NCBI GenBank assembly: GCA_964490395.1
Contig: CAZBAS010000001.1
Span: forward strand, 19,815 to 83,814
DNA from: an uncultured Candidatus Saccharibacteria bacterium
Lineage (GTDB): Bacteria > Patescibacteriota > Doudnabacteria > UBA920
Length of the DNA stretch: 64,000 bases
Direction of reading: 5' to 3'
Shown: piece after piece, positions 3,488 to 24,110 of the stretch
Layout of the letters: each line of letters starts with the position of its first letter
How positions within the stretch are numbered: the stretch's first letter is position 1
Program-made: the position numbers and the translations under genes
The notes under the pieces: generated by a model
Seen by the model: the letters and a program-made list of their open reading frames with translations, nothing else
What the model was told of the DNA's origin: nothing
Databases searched by the model: none

Positions 3488-3579
3488 TCGTTAGTTTATA
3501 AAGTTTATAAAGTAGAAAGTTTATAAAGTAACGGATTTAGCTTTATGAACTTTACAAACTTTAAGAACTTGATACTTAT

Positions 3580-3896: not shown

Positions 3897-4274
3897 ATGA
3901 AGATAACAACATCAACCGGAACGCTCGTACTGCTACTTGCAGTGTCCATTGCGCTTATGCCCACCATTTCAGCCCTGGATAAATTCAATGCAGAGATAGT
4001 TCCCCCCGTAGGGACAGTTGCAGGTATTGCCATTGGAGGCGTTATTGAGCCAACCCCCACAAACACCCTCTATGCAGAATTGCAAAACGAGAAAACTGTC
4101 CTCGACAGCAGAACCAAAGAGCTGGACGCCAAGGAGCGATACCTTAATGCTGCAAATCAGCATAAAACCTACATACTCGAATTCGCCGTTGCTATACTAT
4201 TTTGCTTAGTTTTAATAAATTTCTATTTTGATATACGCAGAACAAAAAAGGAAGTCACACAAATCAATACATGA
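3897..4274 (+). CDS. Small bitopic membrane protein (N-terminal signal/TM, coiled-coil, C-terminal TM).
   Basis: Hydrophobic N- and C-terminal segments. Overlaps the next gene by 4 nt (atga), so it is first in an operon of surface-protein genes. Confidence 0.5.
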   Translation: MKITTSTGTLVLLLAVSIALMPTISALDKFNAEIVPPVGTVAGIAIGGVIEPTPTNTLYAELQNEKTVLDSRTKELDAKERYLNAANQHKTYILEFAVAILFCLVLINFYFDIRRTKKEVTQINT

Positions 4275-6827: not shown

Positions 6828-7955
6828 ATGGCAAACCGACTAGCCTTCTACTTGAAAAAGAAGTTTAAAAATACAACCAGCAAAGCTCTTGTCGCCACAC
6901 TAGTGCTCAGCACAATTCTTTTTGGTGCCAATACAGCCAATGCAGCTCAAATTACTTCATTCTCAGATACGCTCACAAGGCTCAAAGCAAGCACGGCAGC
7001 AGACCACACCATATTCTTGGTCAGTCCTAGTGGTATTGCAGCAGGCCAAAGCATGACACTTACTTTTGGAGCAGCCTTTACTACAAGCTCAATAGTTCTT
7101 GCAGATATCGACTTTGCTACGGGAAACAGTGGTACTTGTACGAGTGCCACCTATACTGAGCAAACCCTAGCAGCTTCCCCTTCTGGTGCTACTTGGGGTG
7201 TTACCTTTTCAAGCTCAGTGTTAACCCTCACCTCAGGAACAGGCACCTCAACGGCTGGTAACTGCATGCGCTTCAGAATAGGGACAAACGCTGTAACTGG
7301 CAGCTCTGGTACCCATCAAATCACAAATGGTACAGCTGGCGCCACAACCGCAACGGTAGTAGCGAACATAAACTCAAGCACCGATACGGGTACACTGTTT
7401 ATTCCAATCATCACCAACGACCAAGTAACTATTAGCGCTACGGTTGACCCGACTATTTCTTTTAGCATAAACAACACCTCTGTTAGTTTCGGTTCTCTTT
7501 CTTCATCTACAGGCCGCTGGGCTACTACCGGTGGTGGCGCAAACGCCTCAGCTGCAACAGACCCTACCGCGGCCAACACTGCTCATACCTTAACTATAGG
7601 AACAAACGCCACCAGTGGATATACAGTTACCTACAACGGAGCCTTGCTTACAAGCGGTGCAAATACTATAGCAGCGGCTACAATCACTGGGGATAGCGAC
7701 GGAACACAAAACTCAAACCAATTTGGGCTCTGCGGTAAGGGCACCTCCGGTAGTCCAACAGTTGCCTCTGGCTATGTATGCAGTACCAACAGTGACTACA
7801 ACTTTGTCGCAAACACAACTACCACCCTTGCCAGCGCAACGGCCCCAGCCAGCAGCGACGTAGTAAGCGTAGCGTATTTGGCCAACATCGCGAGCTCGAA
7901 GCAAGCTGGTACATATACCACCACCCTGACCTACGTCGCCACCGGTAATTTCTAA
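6828..7955 (+). CDS. Secreted Thr/Ser-rich beta-sandwich protein with a WxL-like / SCPU-like C-terminal domain.
   Basis: Signal peptide. C-terminal ~170 aa has the pattern VTISATVDPTISFSI..SVSFGSL...HTLTIGTNATSGYTVTY....AGTYTTTLTYVATGNF*. Paralogous to 9062..10156. Confidence 0.5.
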   Translation: MANRLAFYLKKKFKNTTSKALVATLVLSTILFGANTANAAQITSFSDTLTRLKASTAADHTIFLVSPSGIAAGQSMTLTFGAAFTTSSIVLADIDFATGNSGTCTSATYTEQTLAASPSGATWGVTFSSSVLTLTSGTGTSTAGNCMRFRIGTNAVTGSSGTHQITNGTAGATTATVVANINSSTDTGTLFIPIITNDQVTISATVDPTISFSINNTSVSFGSLSSSTGRWATTGGGANASAATDPTAANTAHTLTIGTNATSGYTVTYNGALLTSGANTIAAATITGDSDGTQNSNQFGLCGKGTSGSPTVASGYVCSTNSDYNFVANTTTTLASATAPASSDVVSVAYLANIASSKQAGTYTTTLTYVATGNF

Positions 7956-7968
7956 ACGTTTTACCACC

Positions 7969-8997
7969 TTGTCTAGCATTCGCTTCATATATAAGCTTTT
8001 TACTATCAGCACTCTGTTGCTGATAGTTTTTATTACCTACCCGCAGCACGCCAGGGCAACCACCATTTCACCAGTAAAACTCGAGCTAGCGGCAAACCCT
8101 GGAGAGACAATTCAAGGGTCAATCAAGGTAATAAATGAAACCCAAAGCTCCGAGGTACTCTACACTGCAACATTAAACTTTGAGCCAAAGGGTGATGAAA
8201 GTGGTGAACCAAATTTCGTACCAACCAAAGACGGCCTAGCGGCTTGGGTAAAAACTGATTATTCCATCACCCTGGGACAAAAAGAGCAAAAAAACCTGCC
8301 TTTTATCATCCAAATTCCCATGGGAACTGAACCGGGGGGATATTTTGGGGCCATTTTTACTTCTACAACACCGCCAAAAGAAAATGGTAGCGGTGGGGTA
8401 ATGCTCACAGAACGGGTCGGATCCCTTGTGTTATTGCGTGTAAACGGAGCACTCGCCGATTCCGGAGATATATTAGAATTCGGTACAAAAGATAAAAAGT
8501 TTTGGCATACCACCCTGCCCATTACTTTCTACTACCGATTTCAAAATAGCGGCCTAGATCGCGTTAGACCGCTCGGCGATATTCTCATAAAAAATTGGGT
8601 TGGACGTACCTCAAAAATAGTCCCCGCCAATCCAGAGGGCGGAAACGTGCTACCTAAAAGTATACGCAGGTTTGAATCGAAATGGATTAACCTATGGGGC
8701 AAGGCAAACAAAGAGGATATTGCCCAATTCCCAACCCCGCCAGAACAGGGCTTCTGGAAAAAAGTGTCGTACGAAGCAAAATATTTTGCCTGGGGTCGCT
8801 ACAAAATTCAGCTCAACCTTGCATATGGTTTCACGGAATTCCACTCAACCAGCGCCACCACAACAATTTTTGTCTTCCCGTGGCACCTCACACTCGTAAG
8901 TACACTTGCCGCAATTACATTATTCTTCATACTACGCTTCGCAATACGTAGATACAATCGCTGGATAATAAAAAAGGCAACCAAGAAAACAAAGTAA
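7969..8997 (+). CDS. DUF916/DUF3324-like (CscA-like) cell-surface protein with a C-terminal TM anchor.
   Basis: Signal peptide, ~300-aa extracellular domain (PVKLELAANPGETIQGSIKV...EPGGYFGAIFTSTTPP...), and C-terminal TM plus basic tail (ITLFFILRFAIRRYNRWIIKK). Paralogous to 10161..11123 and 11120..12097. Confidence 0.5.
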   Translation: MSSIRFIYKLFTISTLLLIVFITYPQHARATTISPVKLELAANPGETIQGSIKVINETQSSEVLYTATLNFEPKGDESGEPNFVPTKDGLAAWVKTDYSITLGQKEQKNLPFIIQIPMGTEPGGYFGAIFTSTTPPKENGSGGVMLTERVGSLVLLRVNGALADSGDILEFGTKDKKFWHTTLPITFYYRFQNSGLDRVRPLGDILIKNWVGRTSKIVPANPEGGNVLPKSIRRFESKWINLWGKANKEDIAQFPTPPEQGFWKKVSYEAKYFAWGRYKIQLNLAYGFTEFHSTSATTTIFVFPWHLTLVSTLAAITLFFILRFAIRRYNRWIIKKATKKTK

Positions 8998-9007
8998 CTA
9001 TATAAAT

Positions 9008-9038
9008 AACACCCTTGTCTGAGCTGGGGTGTTTTTTA
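9008..9038 (+). terminator. Rho-independent terminator.
   Basis: Hairpin aacaccc-ttgtctgagctg-gggtgtt followed by a T run. Confidence 0.55.
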
Positions 9039-9061
9039 TATATCCGTGATAAAATGATTAC

Positions 9062-10156
9062 ATGGAACTCGCAAAAAAAATCTTGCTGCTATGCTCTCTT
9101 ATAACGCTTATTTTATACCCCTTTGGCCTGCACGCAGAGACGTTATCAAGCACAAATTATACCGTAGAGAACCCCAGCGTGGATTCAGGCGGTGAAAATA
9201 GCAATTCAACAAATTATAATGAGCGAGAATCCATCGGGGGAAGCAACGACAGCGCTGCGAGTTCAACAAACTATCGAGCATTCCCCGGATTCGTCCAACA
9301 TGCCTACCCAGGCATTCCCGGGCAACCAACACTCGTGAATACTGGTGGGGTACTGTACAACGCCCTAGATTTTATTATTGCTACTGCAGGCAACCAAACT
9401 GACACTACATACGCCATTGCCATATCGAGCGACAACTTTACCACAACCAACTTCATTCAAGCAGACGACACCGTAGGCAGCAGCGCTGTATGGCAATCCT
9501 ATACATCATGGGGCTCAGGCACAGGCCAACGAGTTACAGGGCTCAGCGCGAACACCACATATAAAATTAAAGTCAAAGCGCGCTATGGCTTTGATACCGA
9601 AACTGCTTATTCTATTACCGCCAGCGCTACTACAGGCGGGCCAACCCTCACAGTATCGTTTGCGGGCGTAAACTCAGGCACTACCATATCTGGAGCGACC
9701 ACTACCATTACGAGCGCAAGTAATACTATAAGCTATGGCTCACTAACCCCGAACGTAACAGCGGTAGCAGCTCAAACCATAACGGTAAGTACAAATGCAA
9801 CAGGCGGCTATACTACAACGCTGCAGCAAGACGGCGATCTACGCAACAATGGTGGAGATTCCATAAGTCCCGTATCGGGCAGCAACGCCTCACCCGCAGC
9901 ATGGCCCACAGGCATCACCACTGGGTTTTTTGGATATCACACTACTGACGCCACCCTCTGTACAGGGACCGCGGGAAGATTCACTTCAAATAACACGTAT
10001 GCTGCGGCCACAACCACCCCTTCAGAAATTGCCTGTTCTACCACAACGGTTACAAACGAACAAACGTCATTAGTATATAAAGTGGAAATTGGAACTGGAC
10101 AAGACGCAGGAACATATCAAAACATAGTTACCTACATAACCACTGCGCAATTTTAA
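9062..10156 (+). CDS. Secreted Thr/Ser-rich beta-sandwich protein, paralogue of 6828..7955 (WxL-like / SCPU-like C-terminus).
   Basis: Signal peptide. The C-terminal pattern TLTVSFAGV...ISYGSL...TITVSTNATGGYTTTL....AGTYQNIVTYITTAQF* parallels that of 6828..7955. Confidence 0.5.
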   Translation: MELAKKILLLCSLITLILYPFGLHAETLSSTNYTVENPSVDSGGENSNSTNYNERESIGGSNDSAASSTNYRAFPGFVQHAYPGIPGQPTLVNTGGVLYNALDFIIATAGNQTDTTYAIAISSDNFTTTNFIQADDTVGSSAVWQSYTSWGSGTGQRVTGLSANTTYKIKVKARYGFDTETAYSITASATTGGPTLTVSFAGVNSGTTISGATTTITSASNTISYGSLTPNVTAVAAQTITVSTNATGGYTTTLQQDGDLRNNGGDSISPVSGSNASPAAWPTGITTGFFGYHTTDATLCTGTAGRFTSNNTYAAATTTPSEIACSTTTVTNEQTSLVYKVEIGTGQDAGTYQNIVTYITTAQF

Positions 10157-10160
10157 ACTC

Positions 10161-11123
10161 ATGCATTACTCTTGGCGGGCCCTTATTGTATGGATACTTA
10201 TTATGGCTAGTTTTTTACTGGCCCCTGTTGGATACGCCCAAACAAATGAAGTGGCGCCAGAACTTGAAGTGCAAGGCGTGCGCATAACCCCTTTTATATT
10301 TGAACAATCCGTGCAAAAAGGAGAATCATTCACAGGAGACATTACTCTTACGAACACTACGGCAGCTCCGGTCACGCTTTCATTAGCCATTCGCGACTTC
10401 ATCCCCGCTGGCCGGCACGGCGAAGTCCGATTCCTACCAGCCAACCAAGAAACAGACTCTCATTTTTCCTTATCAAATTGGGTAGAAATACAGAAGCAGC
10501 CAGATTACACGCTTGACCCCGGACAAAGCACGCGTACTACATTTCGCATACATGTCCCAACTGATGCAGATGACGGCACTCACTACGGGGGCATACTCTT
10601 CTCTTTTAGCGAGGGAAAAGCAGAGAACGGCACAACGGTCATTCAAAGCATTGGCGCTATTCTCATTGCAAAAATTGGATATGCCAACGGTAGCGGTACA
10701 GTTGAAACTTTTACCACCCCGCAACACATATACGCCAGCAGCACTGTTCCATTTGTGGCCACTTTTCGTAATACCGGAAATGTGCATTTTAGTCCTAAAG
10801 GTAAAATAGAAATCAAAAATATCTTTGGCAAAGTCGTCGGCCTTGCTTATATAAACGAAAATGCGCAAATTAGCCTTCCTGACACAGTAAGACAATTTGA
10901 AAGTGTTTATAAAGGGAAATTTATGGTGGGAAAATATACTGCCACACTTACCCTTGTTTTCGGAAATCCAAAACTGGAAGCCCAAAAAACGATAGGGTTT
11001 TGGGTGCTGCCATGGAAATCACTTATAAAATTTGGATTATTGAGCATACTTGTATTAGCCCTGCTCATATTCGCAATAATCCGCTATAATACATGGGTTA
11101 TTAAACACGCCCCCCGATCATGA
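10161..11123 (+). CDS. DUF916-like (CscA-like) cell-surface protein with a C-terminal TM anchor (paralogue).
   Basis: Shares VRITPFIFEQSVQKGESFTGDITLTN and DGTHYGGILFSF with the corresponding PVKLELAANPGE... and EPGGYFGAIF segments of 7969..8997. C-terminal TM LSILVLALLIFAIIRY. Confidence 0.5.
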   Translation: MHYSWRALIVWILIMASFLLAPVGYAQTNEVAPELEVQGVRITPFIFEQSVQKGESFTGDITLTNTTAAPVTLSLAIRDFIPAGRHGEVRFLPANQETDSHFSLSNWVEIQKQPDYTLDPGQSTRTTFRIHVPTDADDGTHYGGILFSFSEGKAENGTTVIQSIGAILIAKIGYANGSGTVETFTTPQHIYASSTVPFVATFRNTGNVHFSPKGKIEIKNIFGKVVGLAYINENAQISLPDTVRQFESVYKGKFMVGKYTATLTLVFGNPKLEAQKTIGFWVLPWKSLIKFGLLSILVLALLIFAIIRYNTWVIKHAPRS

Positions 11124-12097
11124 ACCCAGTCTTGCGTTCAGTACTTGTAGTCAGCTTTATTTTTGCCATCATTGCTGGGACACTACCCCGCACTGCCAAC
11201 GCGCTTACTGCCTCCCCTATACGTATAGAGCTAAACTCAGATCCTGGTAAAACAATAACTTCGCAGTTTAAGCTTTACAACGACGGCAAAACAAGCGAGA
11301 CCTACTACGTAATTTTCGAAAACTTTGAAGCCAAAGGAGAAGACGGCAGCCCAACTCTAGTTGCCGGCACAGACGGCCTTGCCCGATGGATGTCCACAAC
11401 GGAGTCTGTCACTATAAACCCAAAAGAGTCAAAAACACTACCCCTCACTGTTACAATACCCAAAGATGCCGAACCCGGCGGGTATTTTGCTGCCATTCTA
11501 GCCTCTACCATTCCACCAACACCTGAAAGCGACCAAAACGTATTACTTGAAGCACAGGTGGGAACCCTTGTTTTATTACAGGTAAACGGAGATTTTAAAC
11601 AAGGAGTAGACATACTAGAGTTTGGAACTACAAGCAAAAAGCACTGGTTTACAGCGCTTCCTATAGAGCTCTATTACCGCTTTCAGAACGCAGGAGACAG
11701 CTGGGTTAAACCCATAGGAGACATTATTGCCAGGAATTGGTTTGGTAAAACAACCAAAGTTATCCCAACAAATGAGGATCGGGGCAACATCCTACCCCGC
11801 AGTATTAGAAAATTTACCACGACATGGTACGGAAAAGATAAAAGCGGCCAAATGCCCAAAGGCTTTTGGAAAAAAGTAGGCTACGAGTGGAACAATTTCG
11901 CTTTTGGGAAATATTCCATGTCCTTAAACTTGGCCTATGGCAACAGTAGCGACCAAGCAGCCAGAGCAACAACAAGTGTGTGGATATTTCCTTGGCATTT
12001 ATTGCTGGCCGGGCTTGTAGCAATTGTGCTAGTATTCGGAATTTCCATCTCGCTCGCCGTTGTTCTGGTCATGAAACTACTAAAACGAAGAAAATAA
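11120..12097 (+). CDS. DUF916-like (CscA-like) cell-surface protein with a C-terminal TM anchor (paralogue).
   Basis: Segments SPIRIELNSDPGKTITSQFKLYN and EPGGYFAAILASTIPP are nearly identical to those of 7969..8997. The start overlaps the previous gene by 4 nt. C-terminal TM plus KRRK tail. Confidence 0.5.
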   Translation: MNPVLRSVLVVSFIFAIIAGTLPRTANALTASPIRIELNSDPGKTITSQFKLYNDGKTSETYYVIFENFEAKGEDGSPTLVAGTDGLARWMSTTESVTINPKESKTLPLTVTIPKDAEPGGYFAAILASTIPPTPESDQNVLLEAQVGTLVLLQVNGDFKQGVDILEFGTTSKKHWFTALPIELYYRFQNAGDSWVKPIGDIIARNWFGKTTKVIPTNEDRGNILPRSIRKFTTTWYGKDKSGQMPKGFWKKVGYEWNNFAFGKYSMSLNLAYGNSSDQAARATTSVWIFPWHLLLAGLVAIVLVFGISISLAVVLVMKLLKRRK

Positions 12098-12720: not shown

Positions 12721-12924
12721 ATGCAAAATATGCAGTTACCAGAGCTGCTAACCTTGCGAGAAGCCTGCGAGCTCCTTCACGTTCACCCAAACACGCTCAG
12801 AAATTGGGAAAAAGAGGGAAGACTGTCCGCAGTTCGCATAGGCAGCCGCCGAGACCGCCGCTTCACCAAAGAAGCGCTGGCCCAGCTCTACACCTCTCTT
12901 GCAACCCAATCAGCCGCTTTGTAA
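12721..12924 (+). CDS. Small helix-turn-helix DNA-binding protein (excisionase/MerR-type HTH_17 family).
   Basis: The motif LLTLREACELLHVHPNTLRNWEKEGRLSAVRIGSRRDRRF is the typical excisionase-family HTH. The gene is 67 aa and lies immediately upstream of the giant ORF. Confidence 0.6.
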   Translation: MQNMQLPELLTLREACELLHVHPNTLRNWEKEGRLSAVRIGSRRDRRFTKEALAQLYTSLATQSAAL

Positions 12925-13043: not shown

Positions 13044-16000
13044 GTGGCAAAACACAATCTGAAAACTATTCTAAATTTCAGAAAGCGTACAAAGCTGTAT
13101 GCTCTTTTGGCATTGGCGGGTGTAGCACTCAATTGGATGCCGTTGTTTGCCCCACCGGCCCAAGCCACGGTTCCAAAATACATAAACTTCCAGGGAAAGC
13201 TCACAAAAGTCTCTGATGGTACTAACGTCACGAACGGAAGCTATGCTTTTGAATTCAAACTATACGATGCGAGCACCAGTGGCACCCTACTCTGGACAGA
13301 AACATATGACCAACCAAGTGGTGCGTGTACTAAACTAGCAGTAACAAGTGGGGTATTCAACGCCAAACTTGGTTCTTGTGCGTCCCTGGCGAGCATCGAC
13401 TTTACCGGCGGATCAATATATCTCAGTGTAAACTTTGCTCCCACAGGTGTTAGCTATGACGGTGAAATGTCGCCACGCAAGCAACTCGTAGCCTCTCCCT
13501 TTGCATTAGTCGCCAACAGCGTATCCGGTGATGGACCTATTAATACAGTTAATTCTTCTGCTACGGCCTTAACCGTAGCAAAATCCGGAAGCAACTATGG
13601 CCTCCAAGTTGATACCAGCACTGCCTCTGCTGCGACAGGTCTTAAAATAACCTCAGCAGCTGCAGCGAGCGGTATTGCCTTGTCGGCTATTTCTTCTGGA
13701 ACTAATGAAAGTATTACTCTCGACGCCAAAGGAACAGGCTCAGTCAGCCTCGGCGCAACCTCTACCGGTGACATCCTCCTTGGTGGAGGCTCGGGTTCCA
13801 CTGGTTGTACAGTTACCAACTCAACCGGTGCATTTGCTTGTACGGCTGGCGGCTCGTTCACAACCCTTGGTCTGAGCGGGGCAATTACCGGAGCGACCGG
13901 GATTACATCTTCCGGCACCATCAACTTCTCTACTCTTTCCGCCTCAAGTGCCGTCTATACCGACGGCTCAAAAAACCTCACCTCAACAGCACCAACAAGC
14001 GGCGCCATTGGCTACTGGTCTAGAAGTGGCACCACACTTCAACCTACGACCAGCAACGATGCAATCTCAATAACGGGCAACTCTGGAGATATTGCCACAC
14101 TTACTTCCTCTGCAACTGAAGCCTCTAACAAAACTTTAAATATTTCTCAGACTGGTGCAACAAGTGGTACTGACTACGGAGCATATATTTCAAACACAGG
14201 AGCAGCAACAAACAATGTTGGTTTATATACCACCACCTCTGGGGCAACCAATAACTATGCTGCGATTTTTGATAGTGGAACAGTAGGGTTTGGTACAACT
14301 GCCCCCACAGCAGGCAAATTGCACATTCTAGCAGCAAACACTACACAACCCGCAATTGCAGTACAGCAGCCAAGCGCGAACAACAACTACAGCATATTAT
14401 TAGCATCTACAAACAACTTTGGCTCCAACAACCTTGATTTAAACTATCAAGATGGTAATGGTATTCGGATGATTAGCAACCTAAATATGAATATCAGCGC
14501 TGGAAGCGCGCTTAATTTAACATCCGGCACCGCATCTACGTACGCCCTACCTTCAAACACCGCAAGTGCTTTACGCTTTACAGATGGGACAAACTCGTAC
14601 CACACTATCGATACGAGAACTACAAACTCCACATCCTCCGCGCACACTTTCGCCACAACTGCACCCACCATTGCCTCATCTAGTACTTCCGCGTATTTAC
14701 TTACGACTTTTACCCCAGGCACCCAAACATACACCGGGACCACCAACACCACCAGCACTGGTGCTACTGCCCCACTGAGCGTACTCTTCAACCAGCCAAC
14801 CATAGCAGGCAACGGCACCAGAACTATTACTGAAACTTCTAACACCGTTATTAATGGTCCAACCATTGCATCTTCTTCTTCAGGTACAGAAACAATTACT
14901 AGCGCCTATGGACTTAATATCCTTTCCGGTTCTGCACTAAACGGCACTGGTGGTGCGGTTACTAACGGTGTTGGTCTTTCAGTAAACGCCCCCACTGGCG
15001 CAACCAATAACTACGCAGCCTTGTTTAACGGCGGCAATGTAGGCATTGGAAACACCGCCCCGACTGAGACGCTCGACGTAACGGGCAACGCAAAAATACG
15101 CGGCACTTTAAAGATCCGAAGCGCTAGCAATACTGGAAACCTAAGCATTCTTGATGCTGGAGGTGGTGTAGCCACAATAGACAACACTGGTAATAGTATT
15201 CTCGCTATAAATGGTGGCTCTATCAGCACAAACTTTGTGACTGGCAACGTTGGTATTGGTATTTCCAACGTCACCACACCAAATGCTGCATTACAAATTG
15301 CCACAAACGGCGCAGCTTCAACACCAGGCGTACGACTTGATGGTACCTGGTACGCTGCAGGAACAAGCACTACTAATAAACCACAATTATTAGTCGAACC
15401 AACTGGCACAACCTCTACTACCTGGTCCGGCGCAGGCACTGGCATTGGCGCCAATGCCGCAAGTGGTTTTACCGGCAACTTACTTGACCTGCAAACAAAC
15501 AATGCAAGCAAGTTTTCAGTAGCAAGCGACGGTACTGTAATTACAGCCAGTACTATTTTTGGCGGCAACGACATTTATGCTGGATCAAGCAGCTACTTAG
15601 CTTTTAGCAGCCGAAGTAAAATTAGTTCCCCTGCCGACAGCAACTTACTACTCACCAACGCTGCTGCAAACGCATTTAACTTATTGCAGTTCGGCGGCAC
15701 TTCTTCTTCTTTCCCTGCCCTAAAACGCAGCACAACCATCCTACAAGCGCGACTTGCAGATGATAGTGGGTACACATCATTTGACGCAGGAAATTTCCTC
15801 CTCAGCGGCACAAACATAAACACCGCGGGTACACTCACTAATGTTGCGTATAAAAATGCAGCCAATACTTTTACAGCTAATAATATCTTCCAGCCAACTG
15901 TCACTACCGGCACTGGGGCCACTGCTGGTGTACAAATTGCAGCAAACAGTTTAACCACCGGTAATGGACTAGATGTTTCTTCTACCTCACTCACAACAGG

Positions 16001-19000
16001 AAACCTAGCAGCGCTCTCTTCTTCATCCACCGCTGGTGGAGCGTCTGGTACTTCTACCCTCCTAAACTTGTCTCGCACTGGTGTTAATAGTAATACCGCA
16101 CACACTGCGTATGGACTTTATTCTACCGTCACAAACACAAACGTGACCAGCGGCACAAACATTGCTGCTTATCTTTCTGCTAGTGGTGCGACTACTGCAA
16201 ATTACGGCCTAATTGTTGCTGCTGGAAATGTAGGGATAGGAACAACAACACCTAAAGGGCTCCTTGAAATTGACGGATACGCGGGACAAACAATACTAAG
16301 AGACCTAGGAGCCGCAGCAGACGAAGGTGGGTGGTCATTTACCACTTCCGCAACCACCCTCACTCTTGGATCAACAAACGACGCCAACAATGCTGGCGCA
16401 AGCCTTCTTGTCGCAAAACGTGGCACCGGCACAACTATAACAAGCTTATACTCCCCTTCGACTTCTACTAATTTTGGGCTGGGCGACTCAACACCGGCCT
16501 CCCTACTTACTGTAGGCAACGGCGACCTTTTCCAAGTAAACTCATCGGGTGCAATTGCTGCTGCCACTGGAATTACCTCTTCTGGAACAATTAACTTCTC
16601 TACTCTTTCCGCTTCTAGCGCGGTCTATACCGACGGCTCAAAAAACTTAACCTCTACCGCACCAACAAGTGGCGCCATTGGGTATTGGTCTAGGAGCGGC
16701 ACCACTTTGCAACCAGCAACAAGCAATGACGTTGTAGCAATTTCTAGTAACGCTGTTGCTGCGGGCGGAGTTCTCGATATTACATCTTCTGGCACAGTTA
16801 CGAGCGGCAATAACGCAATTAGAATCACTGCAAACTCAGTAACCACTGGGGTAGGCGTTTCCTTGTCTACAACTGGAGTAACTACTGGAACAGCATTAAA
16901 CATTACCGGCCCTAGCACAACAGGTGTAACCACTGGCTTGTCATCTGGCTTCATCAAGGCAACAAGCGACGTTGGATCAGGTGGAACCGGCGGGGTGCTG
17001 GCGTACTTAGCACCAGACTACAGCTCCGCTTCTGCCGCAACTAGTTATGGCCTTGAAATAAATGGAACGGATAGCACAACGGTAAGTAATAACAATTACA
17101 ACCTTTACAGTAATTTGGCTATGAGCGGCGATGCTACGAGTAAACTCGGGGTAGCTATCTACGGCAATGTCAGCTCGAGTAGTACACTAGCTGATACTAC
17201 ATATGGCGGCCTATTTGGCACCTCTGTAAGCGGGGCAATATCCACCGGAAGCAGAAACAACTACGGAATATACGCGCAACCAAACGTCAGCAGCGCTAAC
17301 ACAGGTGGTATTACAAATGTGTACGGTGCCTTCCTAGCACCCGCTTCATCGAACTCTACTACTGGCTCTACAGTAAACGTGTACGGCAGCTATACTACAA
17401 ACCAAGCACTCTTAACAACAGGTGGCACCATAAACAGCTATGGCAACTATATTGCCAATGGGTCGGTAAGCACTACTGGAACTTCGACTCAATACGGTTT
17501 ATATGTGGAATCTCAAACTGGCGCAGATAATAACTACACCGCGGTGTTTGCGGGTGGAAACGTAGGAATAGGAACAACAACGCCTACGGCCTTTCTTCAT
17601 GTCGGCTCTAATGGTGCAGCATCTAACCCTGGACTTAAGCTGAGCGGCTCATGGTTTACCGGTGGCGACTCTACCACGACTAAACCACAGGCTTTAATAG
17701 AAGCGAGTGGGGCAACTTCTTCAGGGTGGTCCACAAGCGGCACTGGCCTTGGTATAAACGCACCGAGTGGTTTTACGGGAAGAATGATAGATGTAAAACT
17801 AAATGGAACCAGCTCCTTTGCCCTTAATGAGGCTGGAGGCATTTCAATCTTGGGCCAAGGAGTTACTAATATTGGGGCGGCCCAAGCCTACTGGTATCAA
17901 CCATCAGGAGCTACTGTATCAATTGGAAACAACGGCGACACTGGGGCAAGTAATTTATTACTACGGGCTGGAGCAAGCGGGTCTTCTGGTGGAAACATCA
18001 CATTTAATATAAACAACTCTAATACCGGAATATGGAACTCCGCAGGTTTTGGTATTGGTACCGGCACACCAATAGACCCACTCTCTATTAGCACCGCAAT
18101 AAACGCATCTGCGACACACGCACTGTTTAATCTTTCAAACACCGCTCTTTCCAGTGGTTCGGCTAATGGTACGTACATAGGCGCAAACCCTGCGGCTTTT
18201 ACTGGCAACTTCTTCGACTTTCAAGTTGCGAGTTCTAGTGTAGCTAAACTCACCAGCGCTGGTGCATTAACCGTTTCATCTTGTACTGGTTGTGGTAGTG
18301 GAGCCACTACATTCGACGCAATTGGAGATCCCGCTGGTAATGGCGCTATAAACATGGGTACCACTGTTCAAACCCTAGACTGGGGAGCCACCACCACAAC
18401 CGACAACTTAAGCATTACTTCCTCTGGTACTGGCATAACCTCTGGTTCTGTATTAAAAGTCACCTCGGCCACTACTGGCGCAGTTTCAAATGGACTTATT
18501 CAATTCACCGCAAGTGGTGCATATACATCAACTGGCGGGTTATTGAGTGTAACCGGCAACTCTACCGCAACTGGTACACTCGCAAAGTTTTCTGCTACCG
18601 GTTTAACTACTGGTACAGGGCTAACAATTGCCGGTGGTACGGCAATGACAACTGGCACAGTACTAGGCGTGAGCAGTGCAACCTACAACCACGCCAACGG
18701 TGAAACTGGAAATATGGCTTCACTAATCTTCTCAGACGCAACCACAACCGCCGGCGCCGTAACCAGCACCACCAACGGATTAAACATCGCCTCAACCATA
18801 GCAGCAACAACCAGCACCAGTGGTACAAAAACTGTGAACGCAATTAACATTGCCTCCCCTACTCTCACTTCTTGTACTGGTGGTGCTAGTTGTGTCTGGA
18901 ACGGTGTACAAATTACTGCTCCAGCGACTACTGCTAGTTTTACTTCTACTGCACTCAAAGTAGTTGCGAACTCTTTAACCACCGACACAGTGGCTAGTAT

Positions 19001-22000
19001 TTCTGCAACAGGTCAAACAAGTGGTATCGGGCTCTCCATAACTGGTGGTGGCGCCAACCTTACTGCTTCCGGTAAACTCATAGACCTGCAAATGGGTGCA
19101 GCCACCGTGGGTGCAGGATTAAATATTCTTAGCTCGGGTGTATATACTGGCGCGGGCTTAGTACAGCTCACTGCTAACTCAGCCACCAGTGGTGTAATCG
19201 ATAGTATTTCTGGAACAGGATTAACTTCTGGATCAGCAGTTAGAGTAACTGGGTCTGGTGCAACCATGACTACTGGTGGTGAACTCATTGACCTTGTCCT
19301 TGGCGCCAATACTGTAGGGGCGGGAATGACCATCACCAGCACGGGTGCATATACAGGTACCGGTGCAGCTGATGGACTAATTAACATAGTCGCCAACTCA
19401 CTTTCGAGCGGATTTGGTTCCCAATATTCCTTCACTGGCATGACCAGTGGTACCGGCATAAAAATAACCGGTGGCGGCGCAAACTTAACTGCTTCTGGTA
19501 AACTGATAGACCTTCAAATGGGCGCAGCTACTGTTGGTGCGGGTTTAAACATTGCCAGTTCTGGTGTATATACGGGCGCTGGCCTCGTACAACTAACTGC
19601 GAACAGTGCAACCTCTGGTGTAATAGATAGAATCTCCGGAACAGGATTAACTTCTGGATCAGCAGTTAGAGTAACTGGGTCTGGCGCAACCATGACCACT
19701 GGCGGAGAATTGATCGATTTAGTGCTTGGTGCCAATACTGTTGGTGCAGGCCTTACGGTTACCAGCACTGGTACGTATACGGGTAGCGGCGCTGCTGATG
19801 GATTAATTAACGTCGTAGCAAACTCGCTCACCACAGGACTCGGTTCACAATACTCATTCACTGGTATGACAACGGGCACCGGAATAAAGATGACTGGCGG
19901 TACCGCAATGACCACCGGTGGGCTAATACAAATCGGAAACGGTACATATAACCATGTCAACGGTGAAACGGGTAGTATTGCTAAAATTCTTGTTACGGAC
20001 GCCACCACAACCGCCGGTGCGGTTACGAGCACCACTAACGGATTAAACATTGCCTCAACCATAGCAGCAACAACCAGCACAAGTGGAACGAAAACAATAA
20101 ATGCTATCAACATAGCCTCCCCTACTCTTACCTCTTGTGCGGGTGGTGCAAGTTGTGTGTGGAATGGTATGCAAATTACCGCTCCGGCAACCACTGCAAG
20201 TTTTACTTCTACCGCGCTTAAGGTGGTGGCGGATTCGCTGACCACCGATACCGGCGTGAGCATTTCTGCTGCCGCATTAACTACGGGCAACGCCTTAAGC
20301 ATTACCGCTGGTGGCGCAACCGCACTAACTAGTGGTGCAGGACTCAAAGTAACCGGACCAAGCGGGGCTGCTGCAATAGCGAACGGCTTAGTACAAATTA
20401 CTGCAGCTGGTGCGTATACAGGCACAGGCGGACTGTTAAATGTAACCTCTGCGGCCTCTACAGCAGGAACACTTGTTAACTTTACCAACAACACAGCCAG
20501 CTTTACCGGTACGGCTGTTAACATCTCGACCAGCGGCATTACAAGCGGCTCAGCAATGCAAATTACAGGAGGAAGCTCTATGGCTGCGGGTGGACAATTA
20601 CTTGGTCTAAGCATTGGCACGGCAGGTGCAGGTACTGCCCTTAATATTGTTGCCAATGGTGGAACATATACCGGAACCGGGCTTCTAGCATTTAATAGTA
20701 ACAGCTTAACATCCGGAACCATGATGTCGGTAGCGGCAAATGGCTCCGGCCAAACCAGCGCAAAATATATCGACATTGCCCAGACAGGCGTTACCACAGG
20801 GTTTACAGGAAACCTAATAAACCTTAGCTCTACCTCTACAACTGGCGCGGCAACGTTTATAAACCTAACAGCAAACTCTTCTACGGTTGGGGTTGGCCAG
20901 GCTATTTCTATGACCGGCCTAACAACCGGCTCTGCCCTAACCATTACCGGACCAAGCTCGACCGGAGTTACGGGGAGCGGCATCTTAAAAGTTACTGCTG
21001 ACGTAGGGTCTGGTGGCACCCAAGGACAATTGGTCAGTTTTTCTCCGGACTACAGCGCGGGCACCGCGAGTACGGGCTACGGTCAAACCATACTCGGAAC
21101 CGACTCAACATCTACGGCAAACTCAGACAACAACCTATATTCCAGCCTAGCTTTAACAGGAAATGCCGCAAAAACAGGATACGCATTTTATGGCACAGTG
21201 ACCTCTAACTCAACCACTGCTGACACAACCTATGGCGCAAACTTTGACACCAGCATAACCGGAGCAATTTCCACTGGAACCCGCAACACCATTGGTGTCA
21301 GAAGCGCCCCCGCCACTTCAGGCGCAAACACAGGTGGAACCACACAACTGTTTGGTGGAAACTTTGCCCCAAGCAGTACTGGTTCTACCACAGGCGCTAC
21401 AGTAAATGTATTCGGCGCCTATGTAAGCAATACCGCCACCCTTACCACTGCCGGAACCATTAACAGTTACGGGCTGTATGTAGACTCTGGAACCACAAGC
21501 ACCACCGGAACCTCTACTGCATATGGCGCCTATATTCTAGCCCCGACAGGCGCAGACACAAACACGGGACTACTCATTAACACTGCAAACGCAGCAAGCA
21601 TTGGTCAAGTAATAAAGGCATCGACAAGCCAGACTGCTGACCTACTCCAATTCCAAAACTCTTCAGGCACTGTGTTAATGTCCCCAGACTTTGCCAACAG
21701 CAGTTCTTTGTGGAACTTCTACAACACAAGCGGTACAAAAATGGCAGTCATGGGATACGATAACGCCAACAATGCAGCCTTCTTCCAGTCCATAGGCATT
21801 GATGGAGTACTCCGTGCCCGCGACGCTATTAATGGAAGAGATTACGCCAAAATTAATCTGAATTACACTTCGGGTTATATATCTCTTAGTACCAACACCG
21901 GTGCGGATGCAGTAGAACGCATGCGCATAGATGCAACTGGTGCGGTTGGTATTGGCGCAAGCATGACCGCACCAAAACAACCCAACGGATTACAAATGGC

Positions 22001-23726
22001 ATACAGCACCACCGCCAATCAAAAATGGGCATTTATTAGTGGTGAAAGCGGCGCGTATTTAAACGGAAACGCCTACTACGACGGCACCTGGAGATATCTC
22101 GACGGCGCCAACGGCGCATCTATGGTTAACGCCAATAGCGTGCTTAATGCGATCCTGTTCTACACAACCGCAACAACCGGCAGCACCGGAGGAGCCATTA
22201 GCAACTGGACAGAAAAAATGCGTATTGAAGGTGGTGGAAACGTGGACATCGGCACCAGCACATCAAAAGGACTTTTGACTGTTGCCCAAACCGACGCCGC
22301 GAACGACGAAGGTATTTACTTAGATACCGAGGAATCAACTACCACGCAAACGGTGTTTGCTATAGAGAGTGACGCAACCTCTGCTGATACAGTGAAATTT
22401 AAAGTTACGGCGGACGGCGAAACGAGCGCACTTCTTAATGGCCAAGGCGGAAACAACTTGTGCCAAAACGGAGTATTCGCTGGTGGTGTTGGAAAAATTG
22501 GTGATTGTACTTCGGACCGCAGATTAAAAACCAATATTGTTGACCTTGATGGTGGGGCGCTAGAAAAAATCATGCAGGTAAAACCTCGTGTATTCGACTG
22601 GATTAACGGCGCCGGACAACACCAGTCAGGGTTTATAGCCCAAGAAGTACAGGCTGTCATACCAGAGCTGTACAGGGGCGAAACTGCCGATGGCTACTTA
22701 CGGTTCTCCAAAGACCTGCTAGTCCCCTATCTCACCAAAGCGCTACAAGAGTTAAACCAGGTTTCCATTAAGACAAATGCCGACGGAACGATAAACCGAG
22801 ACTCGTTCGTGTTTGAAATGCCCGAAAACCAAGCCAATACGGCACAAATTACAGGGACAGGCACACAGGCCGTGGCCAGTACCGGATTTGTCATAAATCA
22901 AAAAGGAAGTGGCAATATTCTTCAACTCCAAAAAGATGGCATGGACAACTTCTTGGTAGCAAACGACGGTACAGTACACATTCACACAGACCTCGCAAGC
23001 GGTACTGTACTTGAAATAACCAATGCAAACACTTCCCTCTTTACTATTAACACCCAAGGCAATGCGGCACTCGCAGGTACATTGGTTGTAAAGAAAGATG
23101 TTGCAGTACTTGGAAGAATCCTCGGATCTACAGCCATAGTAGCCAAAAATACCAGCAACGAGACTATTCACCAAGGCGACCTACTTATGCTTACTGGTGC
23201 AACCGCAGAGCCAATGCTTGGAGACCAGCCAACCCTTACCGTTGCAAAAGCAGTAGCGGGTACCAACACTACCATTGTTGGCATAGCAGACCGCAACCTT
23301 TCTGACTTCAACATAAACCCTGACTCCCCTGTTGCCGATGACCCAACTACCATAAAACCTGGAGAATATGTAAGCATTGTTATTACGGGCACATACAAAA
23401 AAGTCTTTGTGAACGGCAGCGTTTCACTGGGAGACAAGCTAACCGCATCCATAATCCCAGGAAAAGCAGAAAAGCTCACAGCCAACACACCAGGGCAAGT
23501 GTTTGGTATTTCCCTCGACAACACCCCGGACACAACTGGTTCCATACGCGTTATGCTCTTATCCACTTTTCAACAAGTAACCCAAATAGTTCAGCAAGTA
23601 CCAGTTAGCCAAGCCGCCCCACCAGCACCAAACCAGAACAATAACAACACTCCCCCCCCTGATAACGGTGGAACAACAAGCGATCCTGTGACCCCTCCCG
23701 CAGAAACCCCATCACCTACAGAATAG
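13044..23726 (+). CDS. Giant (3560 aa) secreted Thr/Gly/Ser/Ala-rich repetitive surface protein. It has a phage-tail-fibre-like beta-helical repeat region and a peptidase S74 / intramolecular chaperone autoprocessing domain near the C-terminus.
   Basis: Putative GTG start with a classic signal peptide (KRTKLYALLALAGVALNWMPLFAPPAQA). Globular N-terminal domain. Recurring GNVGIGTTTP / SGTVGFGTTAP motifs. Long internal repeats. The segment CTSDRRLKTNIVDL...PRVFDWIN.....GFIAQEVQAVIPELY....YLRFSKDLLVPYLTKALQELNQ matches the S74 chaperone domain consensus. Pro-rich C-terminal tail. Confidence 0.7.
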   Translation: MAKHNLKTILNFRKRTKLYALLALAGVALNWMPLFAPPAQATVPKYINFQGKLTKVSDGTNVTNGSYAFEFKLYDASTSGTLLWTETYDQPSGACTKLAVTSGVFNAKLGSCASLASIDFTGGSIYLSVNFAPTGVSYDGEMSPRKQLVASPFALVANSVSGDGPINTVNSSATALTVAKSGSNYGLQVDTSTASAATGLKITSAAAASGIALSAISSGTNESITLDAKGTGSVSLGATSTGDILLGGGSGSTGCTVTNSTGAFACTAGGSFTTLGLSGAITGATGITSSGTINFSTLSASSAVYTDGSKNLTSTAPTSGAIGYWSRSGTTLQPTTSNDAISITGNSGDIATLTSSATEASNKTLNISQTGATSGTDYGAYISNTGAATNNVGLYTTTSGATNNYAAIFDSGTVGFGTTAPTAGKLHILAANTTQPAIAVQQPSANNNYSILLASTNNFGSNNLDLNYQDGNGIRMISNLNMNISAGSALNLTSGTASTYALPSNTASALRFTDGTNSYHTIDTRTTNSTSSAHTFATTAPTIASSSTSAYLLTTFTPGTQTYTGTTNTTSTGATAPLSVLFNQPTIAGNGTRTITETSNTVINGPTIASSSSGTETITSAYGLNILSGSALNGTGGAVTNGVGLSVNAPTGATNNYAALFNGGNVGIGNTAPTETLDVTGNAKIRGTLKIRSASNTGNLSILDAGGGVATIDNTGNSILAINGGSISTNFVTGNVGIGISNVTTPNAALQIATNGAASTPGVRLDGTWYAAGTSTTNKPQLLVEPTGTTSTTWSGAGTGIGANAASGFTGNLLDLQTNNASKFSVASDGTVITASTIFGGNDIYAGSSSYLAFSSRSKISSPADSNLLLTNAAANAFNLLQFGGTSSSFPALKRSTTILQARLADDSGYTSFDAGNFLLSGTNINTAGTLTNVAYKNAANTFTANNIFQPTVTTGTGATAGVQIAANSLTTGNGLDVSSTSLTTGNLAALSSSSTAGGASGTSTLLNLSRTGVNSNTAHTAYGLYSTVTNTNVTSGTNIAAYLSASGATTANYGLIVAAGNVGIGTTTPKGLLEIDGYAGQTILRDLGAAADEGGWSFTTSATTLTLGSTNDANNAGASLLVAKRGTGTTITSLYSPSTSTNFGLGDSTPASLLTVGNGDLFQVNSSGAIAAATGITSSGTINFSTLSASSAVYTDGSKNLTSTAPTSGAIGYWSRSGTTLQPATSNDVVAISSNAVAAGGVLDITSSGTVTSGNNAIRITANSVTTGVGVSLSTTGVTTGTALNITGPSTTGVTTGLSSGFIKATSDVGSGGTGGVLAYLAPDYSSASAATSYGLEINGTDSTTVSNNNYNLYSNLAMSGDATSKLGVAIYGNVSSSSTLADTTYGGLFGTSVSGAISTGSRNNYGIYAQPNVSSANTGGITNVYGAFLAPASSNSTTGSTVNVYGSYTTNQALLTTGGTINSYGNYIANGSVSTTGTSTQYGLYVESQTGADNNYTAVFAGGNVGIGTTTPTAFLHVGSNGAASNPGLKLSGSWFTGGDSTTTKPQALIEASGATSSGWSTSGTGLGINAPSGFTGRMIDVKLNGTSSFALNEAGGISILGQGVTNIGAAQAYWYQPSGATVSIGNNGDTGASNLLLRAGASGSSGGNITFNINNSNTGIWNSAGFGIGTGTPIDPLSISTAINASATHALFNLSNTALSSGSANGTYIGANPAAFTGNFFDFQVASSSVAKLTSAGALTVSSCTGCGSGATTFDAIGDPAGNGAINMGTTVQTLDWGATTTTDNLSITSSGTGITSGSVLKVTSATTGAVSNGLIQFTASGAYTSTGGLLSVTGNSTATGTLAKFSATGLTTGTGLTIAGGTAMTTGTVLGVSSATYNHANGETGNMASLIFSDATTTAGAVTSTTNGLNIASTIAATTSTSGTKTVNAINIASPTLTSCTGGASCVWNGVQITAPATTASFTSTALKVVANSLTTDTVASISATGQTSGIGLSITGGGANLTASGKLIDLQMGAATVGAGLNILSSGVYTGAGLVQLTANSATSGVIDSISGTGLTSGSAVRVTGSGATMTTGGELIDLVLGANTVGAGMTITSTGAYTGTGAADGLINIVANSLSSGFGSQYSFTGMTSGTGIKITGGGANLTASGKLIDLQMGAATVGAGLNIASSGVYTGAGLVQLTANSATSGVIDRISGTGLTSGSAVRVTGSGATMTTGGELIDLVLGANTVGAGLTVTSTGTYTGSGAADGLINVVANSLTTGLGSQYSFTGMTTGTGIKMTGGTAMTTGGLIQIGNGTYNHVNGETGSIAKILVTDATTTAGAVTSTTNGLNIASTIAATTSTSGTKTINAINIASPTLTSCAGGASCVWNGMQITAPATTASFTSTALKVVADSLTTDTGVSISAAALTTGNALSITAGGATALTSGAGLKVTGPSGAAAIANGLVQITAAGAYTGTGGLLNVTSAASTAGTLVNFTNNTASFTGTAVNISTSGITSGSAMQITGGSSMAAGGQLLGLSIGTAGAGTALNIVANGGTYTGTGLLAFNSNSLTSGTMMSVAANGSGQTSAKYIDIAQTGVTTGFTGNLINLSSTSTTGAATFINLTANSSTVGVGQAISMTGLTTGSALTITGPSSTGVTGSGILKVTADVGSGGTQGQLVSFSPDYSAGTASTGYGQTILGTDSTSTANSDNNLYSSLALTGNAAKTGYAFYGTVTSNSTTADTTYGANFDTSITGAISTGTRNTIGVRSAPATSGANTGGTTQLFGGNFAPSSTGSTTGATVNVFGAYVSNTATLTTAGTINSYGLYVDSGTTSTTGTSTAYGAYILAPTGADTNTGLLINTANAASIGQVIKASTSQTADLLQFQNSSGTVLMSPDFANSSSLWNFYNTSGTKMAVMGYDNANNAAFFQSIGIDGVLRARDAINGRDYAKINLNYTSGYISLSTNTGADAVERMRIDATGAVGIGASMTAPKQPNGLQMAYSTTANQKWAFISGESGAYLNGNAYYDGTWRYLDGANGASMVNANSVLNAILFYTTATTGSTGGAISNWTEKMRIEGGGNVDIGTSTSKGLLTVAQTDAANDEGIYLDTEESTTTQTVFAIESDATSADTVKFKVTADGETSALLNGQGGNNLCQNGVFAGGVGKIGDCTSDRRLKTNIVDLDGGALEKIMQVKPRVFDWINGAGQHQSGFIAQEVQAVIPELYRGETADGYLRFSKDLLVPYLTKALQELNQVSIKTNADGTINRDSFVFEMPENQANTAQITGTGTQAVASTGFVINQKGSGNILQLQKDGMDNFLVANDGTVHIHTDLASGTVLEITNANTSLFTINTQGNAALAGTLVVKKDVAVLGRILGSTAIVAKNTSNETIHQGDLLMLTGATAEPMLGDQPTLTVAKAVAGTNTTIVGIADRNLSDFNINPDSPVADDPTTIKPGEYVSIVITGTYKKVFVNGSVSLGDKLTASIIPGKAEKLTANTPGQVFGISLDNTPDTTGSIRVMLLSTFQQVTQIVQQVPVSQAAPPAPNQNNNNTPPPDNGGTTSDPVTPPAETPSPTE

Positions 23727-23735
23727 AGCACATAT

Positions 23736-23762
23736 AAAAAGCCCTTATTTAAGGGTTTTTTA
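23736..23762 (+). terminator. Rho-independent terminator of the giant gene.
   Basis: aaaaagccctt-attt-aagggtttttt. Confidence 0.65.
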
Positions 23763-24110
23763 TATAACCAATTATGTTGGCCAATTTTAGTACTGACTTC
23801 GGCAGACAACCGCATTAACAGATTTAATTATCAACATACTATTAATTTACAAAATTACCCATAAGTACTCACATCTTTTGTACCTGCAATGTGGTTATTC
23901 ACTAGTAATATCCCCAAATACCACAAGTAATCCACAGGCAATCAACAGTTACGCGCCTTAACCGCTTATATAAGCGGTTTTATTACCTCCTAGCATGTTG
24001 ATAACTACCTTGGTAAGATAAGTAAATCAAAAGCAAATAAGTAAGTATTACGTAATAAATAGAGGTATTTTTACATAATTACTATCCTTAATTACGTAAA
24101 TACTGTTTTT

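Follow-up and report, generated by a model that had tools for sequence, protein, structure and literature searches.

An internal Peptidase S74 domain and a conserved, chaperone-like end-piece in a giant fibre protein of a Candidatus Saccharibacteria bacterium

The subject of this report is a giant gene within a 64,000-nucleotide stretch of DNA from an uncultured Candidatus Saccharibacteria bacterium, the whole of which is referred to here as the window. The gene occupies positions 13044-23726 (+), starts with a GTG codon and encodes a secreted, repeat-rich fibre protein of 3,560 amino acids that is rich in Thr, Ser, Gly and Ala. Towards its C-terminus the protein carries a Peptidase S74 intramolecular chaperone domain of the phage type, which is followed by an extension that belongs to an end-piece shared with other Patescibacteria. 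The giant protein is probably a trimeric surface fibre of a Saccharibacteria epibiont, similar to phage tail fibres, and we think it rather probable, short of being confident, that its C-terminal 404 residues are a composite assembly unit that would trimerise the fibre and would then be cut off between Thr3156 and Ser3157.

The S74 domain and its place in the protein

Positions 22512-22760 (+) lie in frame within the single open reading frame (ORF) of the giant gene and correspond to residues 3157-3239 of its product; their translation, SDRRLKTNIVDLDGGALEKIMQVKPRVFDWINGAGQHQSGFIAQEVQAVIPELYRGETADGYLRFSKDLLVPYLTKALQELNQ, begins SDRRLKTNIVDLDGG and ends LTKALQELNQ. An earlier note on this DNA, made from the letters alone, had quoted exactly this peptide at the correct coordinates and had assigned it to the S74 family, and the hidden Markov model check of that assignment has now been run. 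PF13884 (Peptidase_S74) scores 58.6 bits (E=7e-16) over residues 3157-3209 and profile positions 1-56 of 58, where the gathering cut-off is 22; this is far beyond chance, and in a scan of the whole protein it is the sole Pfam family to match. From the Pfam, PHROG and PDB profile matches we place the domain at residues 3157-3240 (22512-22763, +), with the predicted scissile bond at its N-terminal edge, between Thr3156 and Ser3157. The PHROG families that match the segment are of the tail-fibre, PblB and hyaluronidase types, and because their matches end at about residue 3240 the phage-type domain is considered to stop at ...QELNQ and the remainder of the protein to be extra.

The domain opens with SDRRLK (22512-22529, +), in which alignment with solved domains identifies Ser3157 as the predicted nucleophile (22512-22514) and Lys3162 as the predicted general base (22527-22529). 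In an alignment of 25 sequences, consisting of the window segment and its relatives, this Ser and Lys are invariant together with the Gly (G48) and Ala (A51) of GFIAQ, and Asp10, Gln52, Pro59 and the Q87/E88 of the QEL helix are nearly so; core positions present in the giant protein include D3158, GFIAQE, IPE and LQEL. The profile built from this alignment matches PDB entries 8JOV (a putative tail fibre, E=1e-18), 6F45, 7DC3 (MyRF), 8HQZ (T5) and 3GUD (GA-1). Ser3157 and Lys3162 align with the Ser and Lys of 8JOV and 6F45 and with A587 (an S587A mutant) and K592 of the MyRF chain 7DC3, which agrees with the catalytic role that the earlier note had given to these two residues. A profile was needed for this purpose, as a PDB search with the C-terminal 608 residues as a single sequence returned nothing relevant, and endoNF itself (3GW6) was not retrieved among the PDB profile matches at E<=0.01. 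S587 and K592 of MyRF are equivalent to S911 and K916 of endoNF and are essential for cleavage, which requires the trimer (PMC8326128), and a cellular S74 fibre, Bd3182 of Bdellovibrio, also cleaves itself at its Ser, a reaction that is blocked by the S782A substitution (PMC10769870).

Some 330 residues had been expected downstream of the domain, arranged as a beta-rich region and a Pro-rich tail, and it had been pointed out that cleavage, if it occurs, would release a sizeable C-terminal product. We count 321 residues after the domain and 404 after the predicted scissile bond, of the composition described, and a product of that size follows from the anatomy. The accompanying statement that the domain stands at the extreme C-terminus in phages has to be qualified. 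It is borne out in six of the seven PHROG families that are matched over the entire domain, where the match ends 1-24 positions from the end of the profile, and in the solved phage chains, where the domain ends near the C-terminus (e.g., 437/439, 195/204 and 1072/1076). It fails for the seventh family, phrog_19195, in which 83 positions remain, and for the S74 family at large. Among 166 S74 proteins, a sample that is partly biased by a query that contained the extension, the domain is followed by <=30 residues in 105, by 31-60 in 20, by 61-150 in 17 and by >150 in 24; the last class includes metagenomic proteins that we label P0004 and P0056, as well as P0055, which is the public annotation of the window's own gene. 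An internal S74 domain is thus a recurring architecture and no one-off, given these 24 proteins and the case of MYRF, and since it is both known in MYRF and common in metagenomic proteins, the internal position is not new in itself and the novelty of the giant protein is lower than was first supposed. Several of the long tails that follow S74 domains end in an Ig-like domain resembling that of other Patescibacteria loci.

Terminal S74 domains run about 16-18 residues beyond the point at which the QEL helix of the giant protein seems to end, and the sequence that follows QELNQ here (VSIKTNADGTINRDSF...) is Gly/Asp/Asn-rich and not helix-like, with a predicted local distance difference test score (pLDDT) of about 30 in the one AlphaFold2 (AF2) model of the region.

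The C-terminal extension and the exchange of modules among relatives

By homology the 321-residue extension splits into a linker, two modules that we call modX and modY, and a tail. The linker (residues 3241-3290, 50 amino acids; 22764-22913, +) is delimited by alignment with relatives, and its INRDSFVFE aligns with the last strand (INNSFVLGE) of a gp12-like module that many of these relatives carry. At the linker end sits the INQKGSG part of INQKGSGNILQLQ, the invariant sequence around which the fibre-like modX (residues 3291-3359; 22914-23120, +) is built. The alignment of modX has invariant Q/K/G/G/I/Q/Q columns, its first unit weakly resembles the shaft repeats of the giant protein (E=0.0098), and in some 35 proteins and loci it is found downstream of a G2-like or an S74 module; AF2 confidence over it is low. 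The next module, modY (residues ~3360-3510; 23121-23573, +), is the only part that was resolved by AF2 from a 26-sequence alignment (pLDDT 84-96), and the Foldseek neighbours of its model, namely the phi29 head-fibre base and phage cement or decoration proteins (E ~1e-5), are all beta-tulip domains. The tail (residues 3511-3560; 23574-23723, +) is defined by its Pro/Thr/Gln/Asn-rich composition, and all relatives end in compositionally similar tails.

The identity of modY is best understood by way of the gp12-like module of the relatives, which we call module B. The two align with an hhalign probability of 98.3% and E=2e-14, and in the profile alignment the Asp and Glu of a D-x-A-E motif of module B are matched in modY by Ile and Lys. 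Because of this replacement we regard modY as a putative non-catalytic homologue of the phi29 gp12 D4/Peptidase_G2 autochaperone and have not filed it as a G2 peptidase. The D4 domain of gp12 is a tandem beta-tulip autochaperone that is required for trimer assembly (bioRxiv 10.1101/216911). Judged from sequence comparison and a structural model, the extension therefore appears to supply a further module of chaperone type, one that is non-catalytic and lies in a conserved end-piece, which refines the earlier interpretation of it. Since its last domain is a homologue of the gp12 autochaperone in an end-piece conserved among Patescibacteria, the piece predicted to be released is more plausibly a chaperone enlarged to two parts than a cargo. 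Pfam, NCBIfam and PHROGs contain no significant match for the extension; weak matches to DUF7467 and to a PHROG head-decoration family (E=0.22) became intelligible only after the fold search, and a pattern search did not find the extension in IMG/VR viral contigs. It contains no membrane-spanning segment and no LPXTG-like motif (the top 19-residue Kyte-Doolittle mean within residues 3157-3560 is 1.29, in a stretch with Lys and Asp), and for want of a membrane-spanning segment and a sortase motif it is unlike an anchor.

Word-indexed protein searches for relatives of the extension gave 3 and 17 matches, and the family was revealed by an exhaustive representative search. The layout of an S74 domain plus the extension occurs in three independent metagenomic proteins only, P0004 (a fragment), P0056 (3,683 amino acids) and P0057 (2,890 amino acids), P0055 being excluded from the count as the window's own gene, and S-D-x-R-L-K is kept in all three. 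In about 30 Patescibacteria proteins and loci by our count (P0005, P0006, P0058-P0065, L002-L006, L008-L010 and others), modX, followed by modY or by an Ig-like domain, stands behind module B instead of S74. Module B has the invariant D-x-A-E mentioned above, frequently as DYAEYF, and its profile matches PDB 3GQH and 3GQK (phi29 "preneck appendage protein") with E=0.0013, such that the invariant Asp aligns with residue 1 of the 163-residue chain 3GQH, which begins DFAEYF. We take gp12 to cleave itself between Ser691 and Asp692, and residues 692-854 would make up 163. Pfam Peptidase_G2 matches seven of ten module-B sequences, with a best E of 2.5e-6, and two scores, of 24.0 and 24.4 bits, fall just below the 25-bit cut-off. 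Self-cleavage motifs of the SEA type (GSVVV) and the pyruvoyl type (LGST) had been considered in module B and modX and were dropped as chance resemblances once the gp12 match appeared.

Other arrangements of these modules also exist. P0103 (769 amino acids) and the 8126-8458 region of L007 carry an S74 domain, then a gp12-like module and then modX, and P0171 (734 amino acids) has the reverse order, with the gp12-like module ahead of S74. In L004, L005, L006, L008 and L009 after modX, and in P0067 and P0142 after S74, there is a domain of about 150 C-terminal residues ending "...GFTI...D..FDW.AL" that is not a beta-tulip and is presumably Ig-like, followed by a Pro/Ser/Thr-rich tail.

The exchange of modules is seen most directly in a BLASTP comparison of the giant protein with P0005. 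Homology extends over residues 2946-3073 (57%) and 3280-3477 (68%) with no similarity between them, and P0005 holds its gp12/G2-like module where the window protein holds its tip and S74 domain. The exchangeable cassette that is defined in this way, residues 3074-3279 (22263-22880, +), comprises the fibre tip, S74 and most of the linker. By sequence comparison, then, S74 and gp12/G2-like modules are swapped at the same position, upstream of a shared end-piece, and because some 30 relatives carry the gp12/G2-like module there, an autoproteolytic chaperone at the S74 position would be the rule in this protein family. We found no description of an S74 domain together with a gp12-like domain, or of the replacement of one by a G2-like module, in the literature searched, which was a limited search and no proof of absence.

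The proteins that share the S74 layout differ from the window protein by segment. For P0004 the identity to the window protein is 65% in the tip (residues 3000-3156), 98% in S74, 82% in the linker, 69% in modX and 64% in modY; the corresponding values are 19%, 39%, 34%, 79% and 90% for P0056 and 19%, 37%, 34%, 89% and 84% for P0057. From these differences we conclude that S74 and the end-piece undergo recombination separately from each other. In BLASTP, homology to P0056 and P0057 starts at residue 3155, at the predicted cut, and the tip ahead of it is unrelated to theirs. The assembly mechanism proposed here would lead one to expect such a pattern, with a conserved chaperone behind a variable tip, and a tip that binds a receptor would look the same. 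The segment just before the predicted cut is the most variable and is probably the host-binding tip.

Predicted assembly of the fibre and alternative roles of the end-piece

According to the mechanism that we favour, three chains would be aligned in register at the C-terminus after Sec export, with modX and the beta-tulip domain supplying the drive for trimerisation that ordinary S74 domains would obtain from a C-terminal coiled coil. The two modules are assigned this role because the coil of the S74 domain appears truncated here and the coiled coil is the main trimerisation drive in MyRF (PMC8326128). Once S74 is trimeric, Ser3157, activated by Lys3162, would attack the Thr3156-Ser3157 bond, upon which the mature fibre would end at Thr3156 and expose its variable tip, and a 404-residue fragment composed of S74, modX, beta-tulip and tail would be released.

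Several observations count against this mechanism. A monomer AF2 model of S74 plus extension, made from 7 sequences, has a mean pLDDT of 30.7 and no visible structural link between the two. The helix after QEL appears short and gives way from residue 3241 to Gly/Asp/Asn-rich, beta-prone sequence, and for that reason competence for cleavage hinges on the putative substitution of the coil. Between the window protein and P0056/P0057, modX and modY are 79-90% identical and S74 is 37-39% identical, and the better conservation of the former may reflect a role of the end-piece beyond folding, or a recent spread by recombination. The presence of S74 and a G2-like module in series in P0103 and L007 is hard to explain if either suffices. 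Finally, what the comparisons above show is membership of the S74 family, the alignment of the dyad, the content and conservation of the extension and the exchange of the cassette; the trimer, the cut, the release of the fragment and the part given to the beta-tulip domain in place of the coil are inferred.

The conservation of the end-piece would be accounted for by a release switch resembling that of MYRF, in which the end-piece keeps a role of its own, for example in binding the envelope or a partner, and cleavage sheds the fibre or frees the end-piece. An internal S74/ICA domain (ICA, intramolecular chaperone auto-processing) is known as a trimerisation-dependent release switch in MYRF (PMC3742440, PMC8326128). 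In the family studied here modX and modY are well conserved, at the values just given, behind unrelated tips and weakly similar S74 domains; the end-piece recombines apart from S74 (98% identity in S74 and 64% in modY for P0004, the reverse for P0056); it is found behind two unrelated autoproteolytic modules; and genes of the WxL-interacting, peptidoglycan-binding type lie just upstream of the giant gene. Pro/Thr-rich C-terminal tails, moreover, are typical of wall-spanning segments in Gram-positive bacteria. We nevertheless consider such a switch unlikely, since the extension has no membrane-spanning segment, LPXTG-like motif or known wall-binding domain, the nearest structural relatives of modY are trimerising phage proteins that include an autochaperone, and cleavage of a protein anchored by its C-terminus would merely lose the 3,100-residue fibre; in other Patescibacteria, too, an Ig-like domain follows modX, and the end-piece is not uniform. 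A related proposition, about which we are equally doubtful, is that the autoproteolytic chaperone, whether S74 or the interchangeable gp12/G2-like module, is no throw-away cap and instead provides a break site where a host-recognition fibre that evolves fast meets a functional, conserved end-piece; the latter would dock to the envelope or to an assembly partner, with cleavage, dependent on trimerisation, timing the deployment or the shedding of the fibre. If true, bacteria would here have an equivalent of the MYRF switch.

It is also conceivable that no cut is made, and that S74 is a structural knot that only trimerises the chains and holds them in register, with fibre on both sides of it. The resemblance of modX to the shaft repeats, by which fibre-like sequence would resume past S74, fits such a knot, as do the apparently truncated terminal coiled coil and the second autoproteolytic-type module that comes after S74 in P0103 and L007 (and ahead of it in P0171). 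The catalytic residues speak for cleavage: all four proteins with S74 plus extension retain the Ser and Lys without exception, despite a domain identity of just 37-39% between the window protein and P0056/P0057, the two residues are invariant in the wider alignment, and all S74 domains with an intact dyad that have been tested to date cleave (PMC10769870, PMC8326128). An uncut protein therefore seems to us improbable, and we retain the composite assembly unit as the preferred reading.

The giant gene, its neighbourhood and comparison with known systems

At its N-terminus the giant protein has a Sec-type signal peptide (residues 1-41; 13044-13166, +), MAKHNLKTILNFRKRTKLYALLALAGVALNWMPLFAPPAQA, which is followed by TV (...PPAQA, then TV). 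It is recognised by its hydrophobicity, as the sole strongly hydrophobic stretch of the protein (19-residue Kyte-Doolittle mean of 1.74 at residue 18), and by its conservation in the orthologue P0056, where the N-terminus is kept with the signal peptide; the cleavage site was read by eye from the sequence, with no prediction tool. The public annotation P0055 (3,529 amino acids), encoded on the same contig as the DnaA of the window, starts at Met32, omits 13044-13139 and thereby loses the signal peptide. In favour of the GTG start at 13044, P0056 keeps the longer N-terminus and has Ile at the position of Met32 in the window protein. The 12 cysteines of the giant protein form six close pairs (95/112, 255/266, 1747/1750, 1944/1950, 2365/2371 and 3140/3155), a pairing that points to disulfide loops in a protein outside the cell. 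The last of them encloses 15 residues immediately before the predicted scissile bond, and a Cys two residues ahead of the catalytic Ser is recurrent in many S74 relatives. Diverged DNA duplications inside the gene (19017-19316/19443-19742, 81%; 18681-18980/19944-20243, 80%; 13878-14085/16548-16755, 78%) show that segmental duplication enlarged the shaft.

The gene is chromosomal in the Candidatus Saccharibacteria genome and lies directly upstream of dnaA (24111), with dnaN and recF next. Further upstream, on the opposite strand, are jag and yidC, and upstream on the opposite strand there is also a gene that is presumably PaaX-like. The neighbourhood contains no tRNA or phage genes. Related loci come from metagenome-assembled genomes (MAGs) of Candidatus Saccharibacteria and other Patescibacteria, and in another Saccharibacteria MAG a homologous giant gene is also found upstream of dnaA. 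We reject a prophage origin because of the gene context, and a recent foreign origin of the cassette is unsupported, there being no GC anomaly across it.

Such observations bear on whether the ORF could be an artefact or a phage gene: it might be the tail fibre of a prophage, a chimera made in assembly, or two genes that read as one because a stop codon after the S74 domain was lost to a sequencing error. It is true that the nearest named relatives of the S74 domain are phage tail-fibre families and that the homologous gene of MAG L001/L003 is split by a frameshift. The locus, however, lies between surface-protein genes and dnaA-dnaN-recF without phage genes or tRNAs, another Saccharibacteria MAG has the gene at the corresponding place upstream of dnaA, the S74-plus-extension frame is continuous in three independent assemblies (P0004, P0056 and P0057), and the even GC content of the cassette and the outcome of the IMG/VR search point the same way, which leaves an origin of this kind a very slight chance indeed. 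In the related Saccharibacteria MAG (L001/L003) gene calling divides the giant homologue into two overlapping ORFs, of 2,103 and 411 amino acids, since the frame shifts at an A-rich run within the gp12-like module (L001 9990-10025); L002, from another MAG, reads through the sequence that is frameshifted in L001, and the split stems from a sequencing error or marks a pseudogene.

Between the giant gene and dnaA, the intergenic region 23727-24110 has 33% GC as against ~48% in its flanks and probably holds oriC or the dnaA promoter. An ORF of 67 amino acids just upstream of the giant gene (12721-12924, +) may, to judge from other genomes, be a dedicated regulator: a 66-residue gene product at the same position in the related MAG (L001 3346-3546) has HTH_17/MerR Pfam matches, the N-terminus of P0088 has a sub-threshold HTH_17 match (22.6 bits against 27), and an N-terminal stretch of P0059 is similar by eye. 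Farther upstream are five secreted proteins in a row (6828-12097, +). PF06030, the peptidoglycan-binding family of WxL-interacting proteins, matches 10161-11123 with 34.4 bits and 11120-12097 with 17.8 bits, the latter under the 27.3 cut-off, and 7969-8997 resembles these neighbours by eye; 6828-7955 and 9062-10156 are Thr/Ser-rich and have similar C-terminal ends (...TYVATGNF and ...TYITTAQF). From its sequences the row resembles a WxL-type cell-surface complex locus beside the giant fibre gene. It is preceded by a secreted protein with a chitobiase/hexosaminidase C-terminal domain, an Fn3-associated domain and a type I dockerin (4271-5794, +) and by a 320-residue protein that has a membrane anchor at its C-terminus and matches no Pfam family (5799-6761, +).

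The epibiotic growth of Saccharibacteria and other Patescibacteria on host bacteria needs several adhesins (PMC10633639), and the folding and maturation of very large Patescibacteria surface proteins were not addressed in the literature that we searched. The parts of the giant protein are individually known, and the advance lies in their architecture and distribution and not in a new principle. The locus offers a concrete predicted maturation site, between Thr3156 and Ser3157, in one giant fibre, and it draws attention to the segment just before that site as a variable tip through which hosts are probably bound. It also shows that two unrelated self-cleaving chaperones of phage type, S74 and gp12/G2-like, can take each other's place at a single site in this family of giant cellular proteins and, for protein engineering, it suggests that a beta-tulip domain may substitute for the coiled coil of S74.

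The S74 chaperones of phages, such as those of K1F endoNF, the GA-1 neck appendage (3GUD), the T5 L-shaped tail fibre (8HQZ) and the S16 long tail fibre (6F45), have an SDxxxK dyad after a fibre or beta-helix, as does the window protein. They have few residues left to the C-terminus and a longer final helix, whereas the window protein has an apparently short helix and 321 more residues, and its gene is cellular, with a product of 3,560 amino acids that bears a signal peptide. In comparison with phi29 gp12 D4 (Peptidase_G2, 3GQH/3GQK), the Ile and Lys that replace Asp and Glu in modY mean that cleavage is not expected there, and modY sits downstream of an S74 domain, a pairing not described in the literature searched. 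The beta-tulip proteins of phage capsids (lambda gpD, the phi29 gp8.5 base, HFTV1, TW1 and Pam3) have no significant sequence similarity to modY (the best PHROG match has E=0.22), and they decorate capsids, whereas modY stands at the end of a cellular fibre. MYRF/MrfA (PMC3742440, PMC3828593, PMC8326128) likewise has an internal S74/ICA domain, cleavage at which divides the protein into a large N-terminal trimer and a C-terminal part of some size. The resemblance is limited to this internal position, since MYRF has a transmembrane helix in its C-terminal part and a long coiled coil in the ICA domain, and the window protein, which is extracellular and bacterial, lacks the former and apparently also the latter.

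In its working, the giant protein as a whole comes closest to the mosaic adhesive trimer (MAT) fibres of Bdellovibrio bacteriovorus, e.g., Bd3182 (PMC10769870). The MATs are long, trimeric cellular fibres, exported by the Sec route in a bacterium that lives on other bacteria, and some of them end in an S74 domain that is proven to cleave itself (PMC10769870). Members of the MAT family exist with and without S74, their termini being swapped, and this is akin to the exchange of S74 and G2-like modules described here, except that the alternative to S74 in the relatives of the window protein is a gp12-like module and not, as in MATs, a tip domain. MATs are about 1,000 amino acids long with a terminal S74 ("13 terminating in a consensus S74"), whereas the window protein is 3.5 times longer with S74 internal, and no gp12-like or beta-tulip end-piece has been described for MATs, whereas the window protein has a beta-tulip end-piece of the gp12 type.

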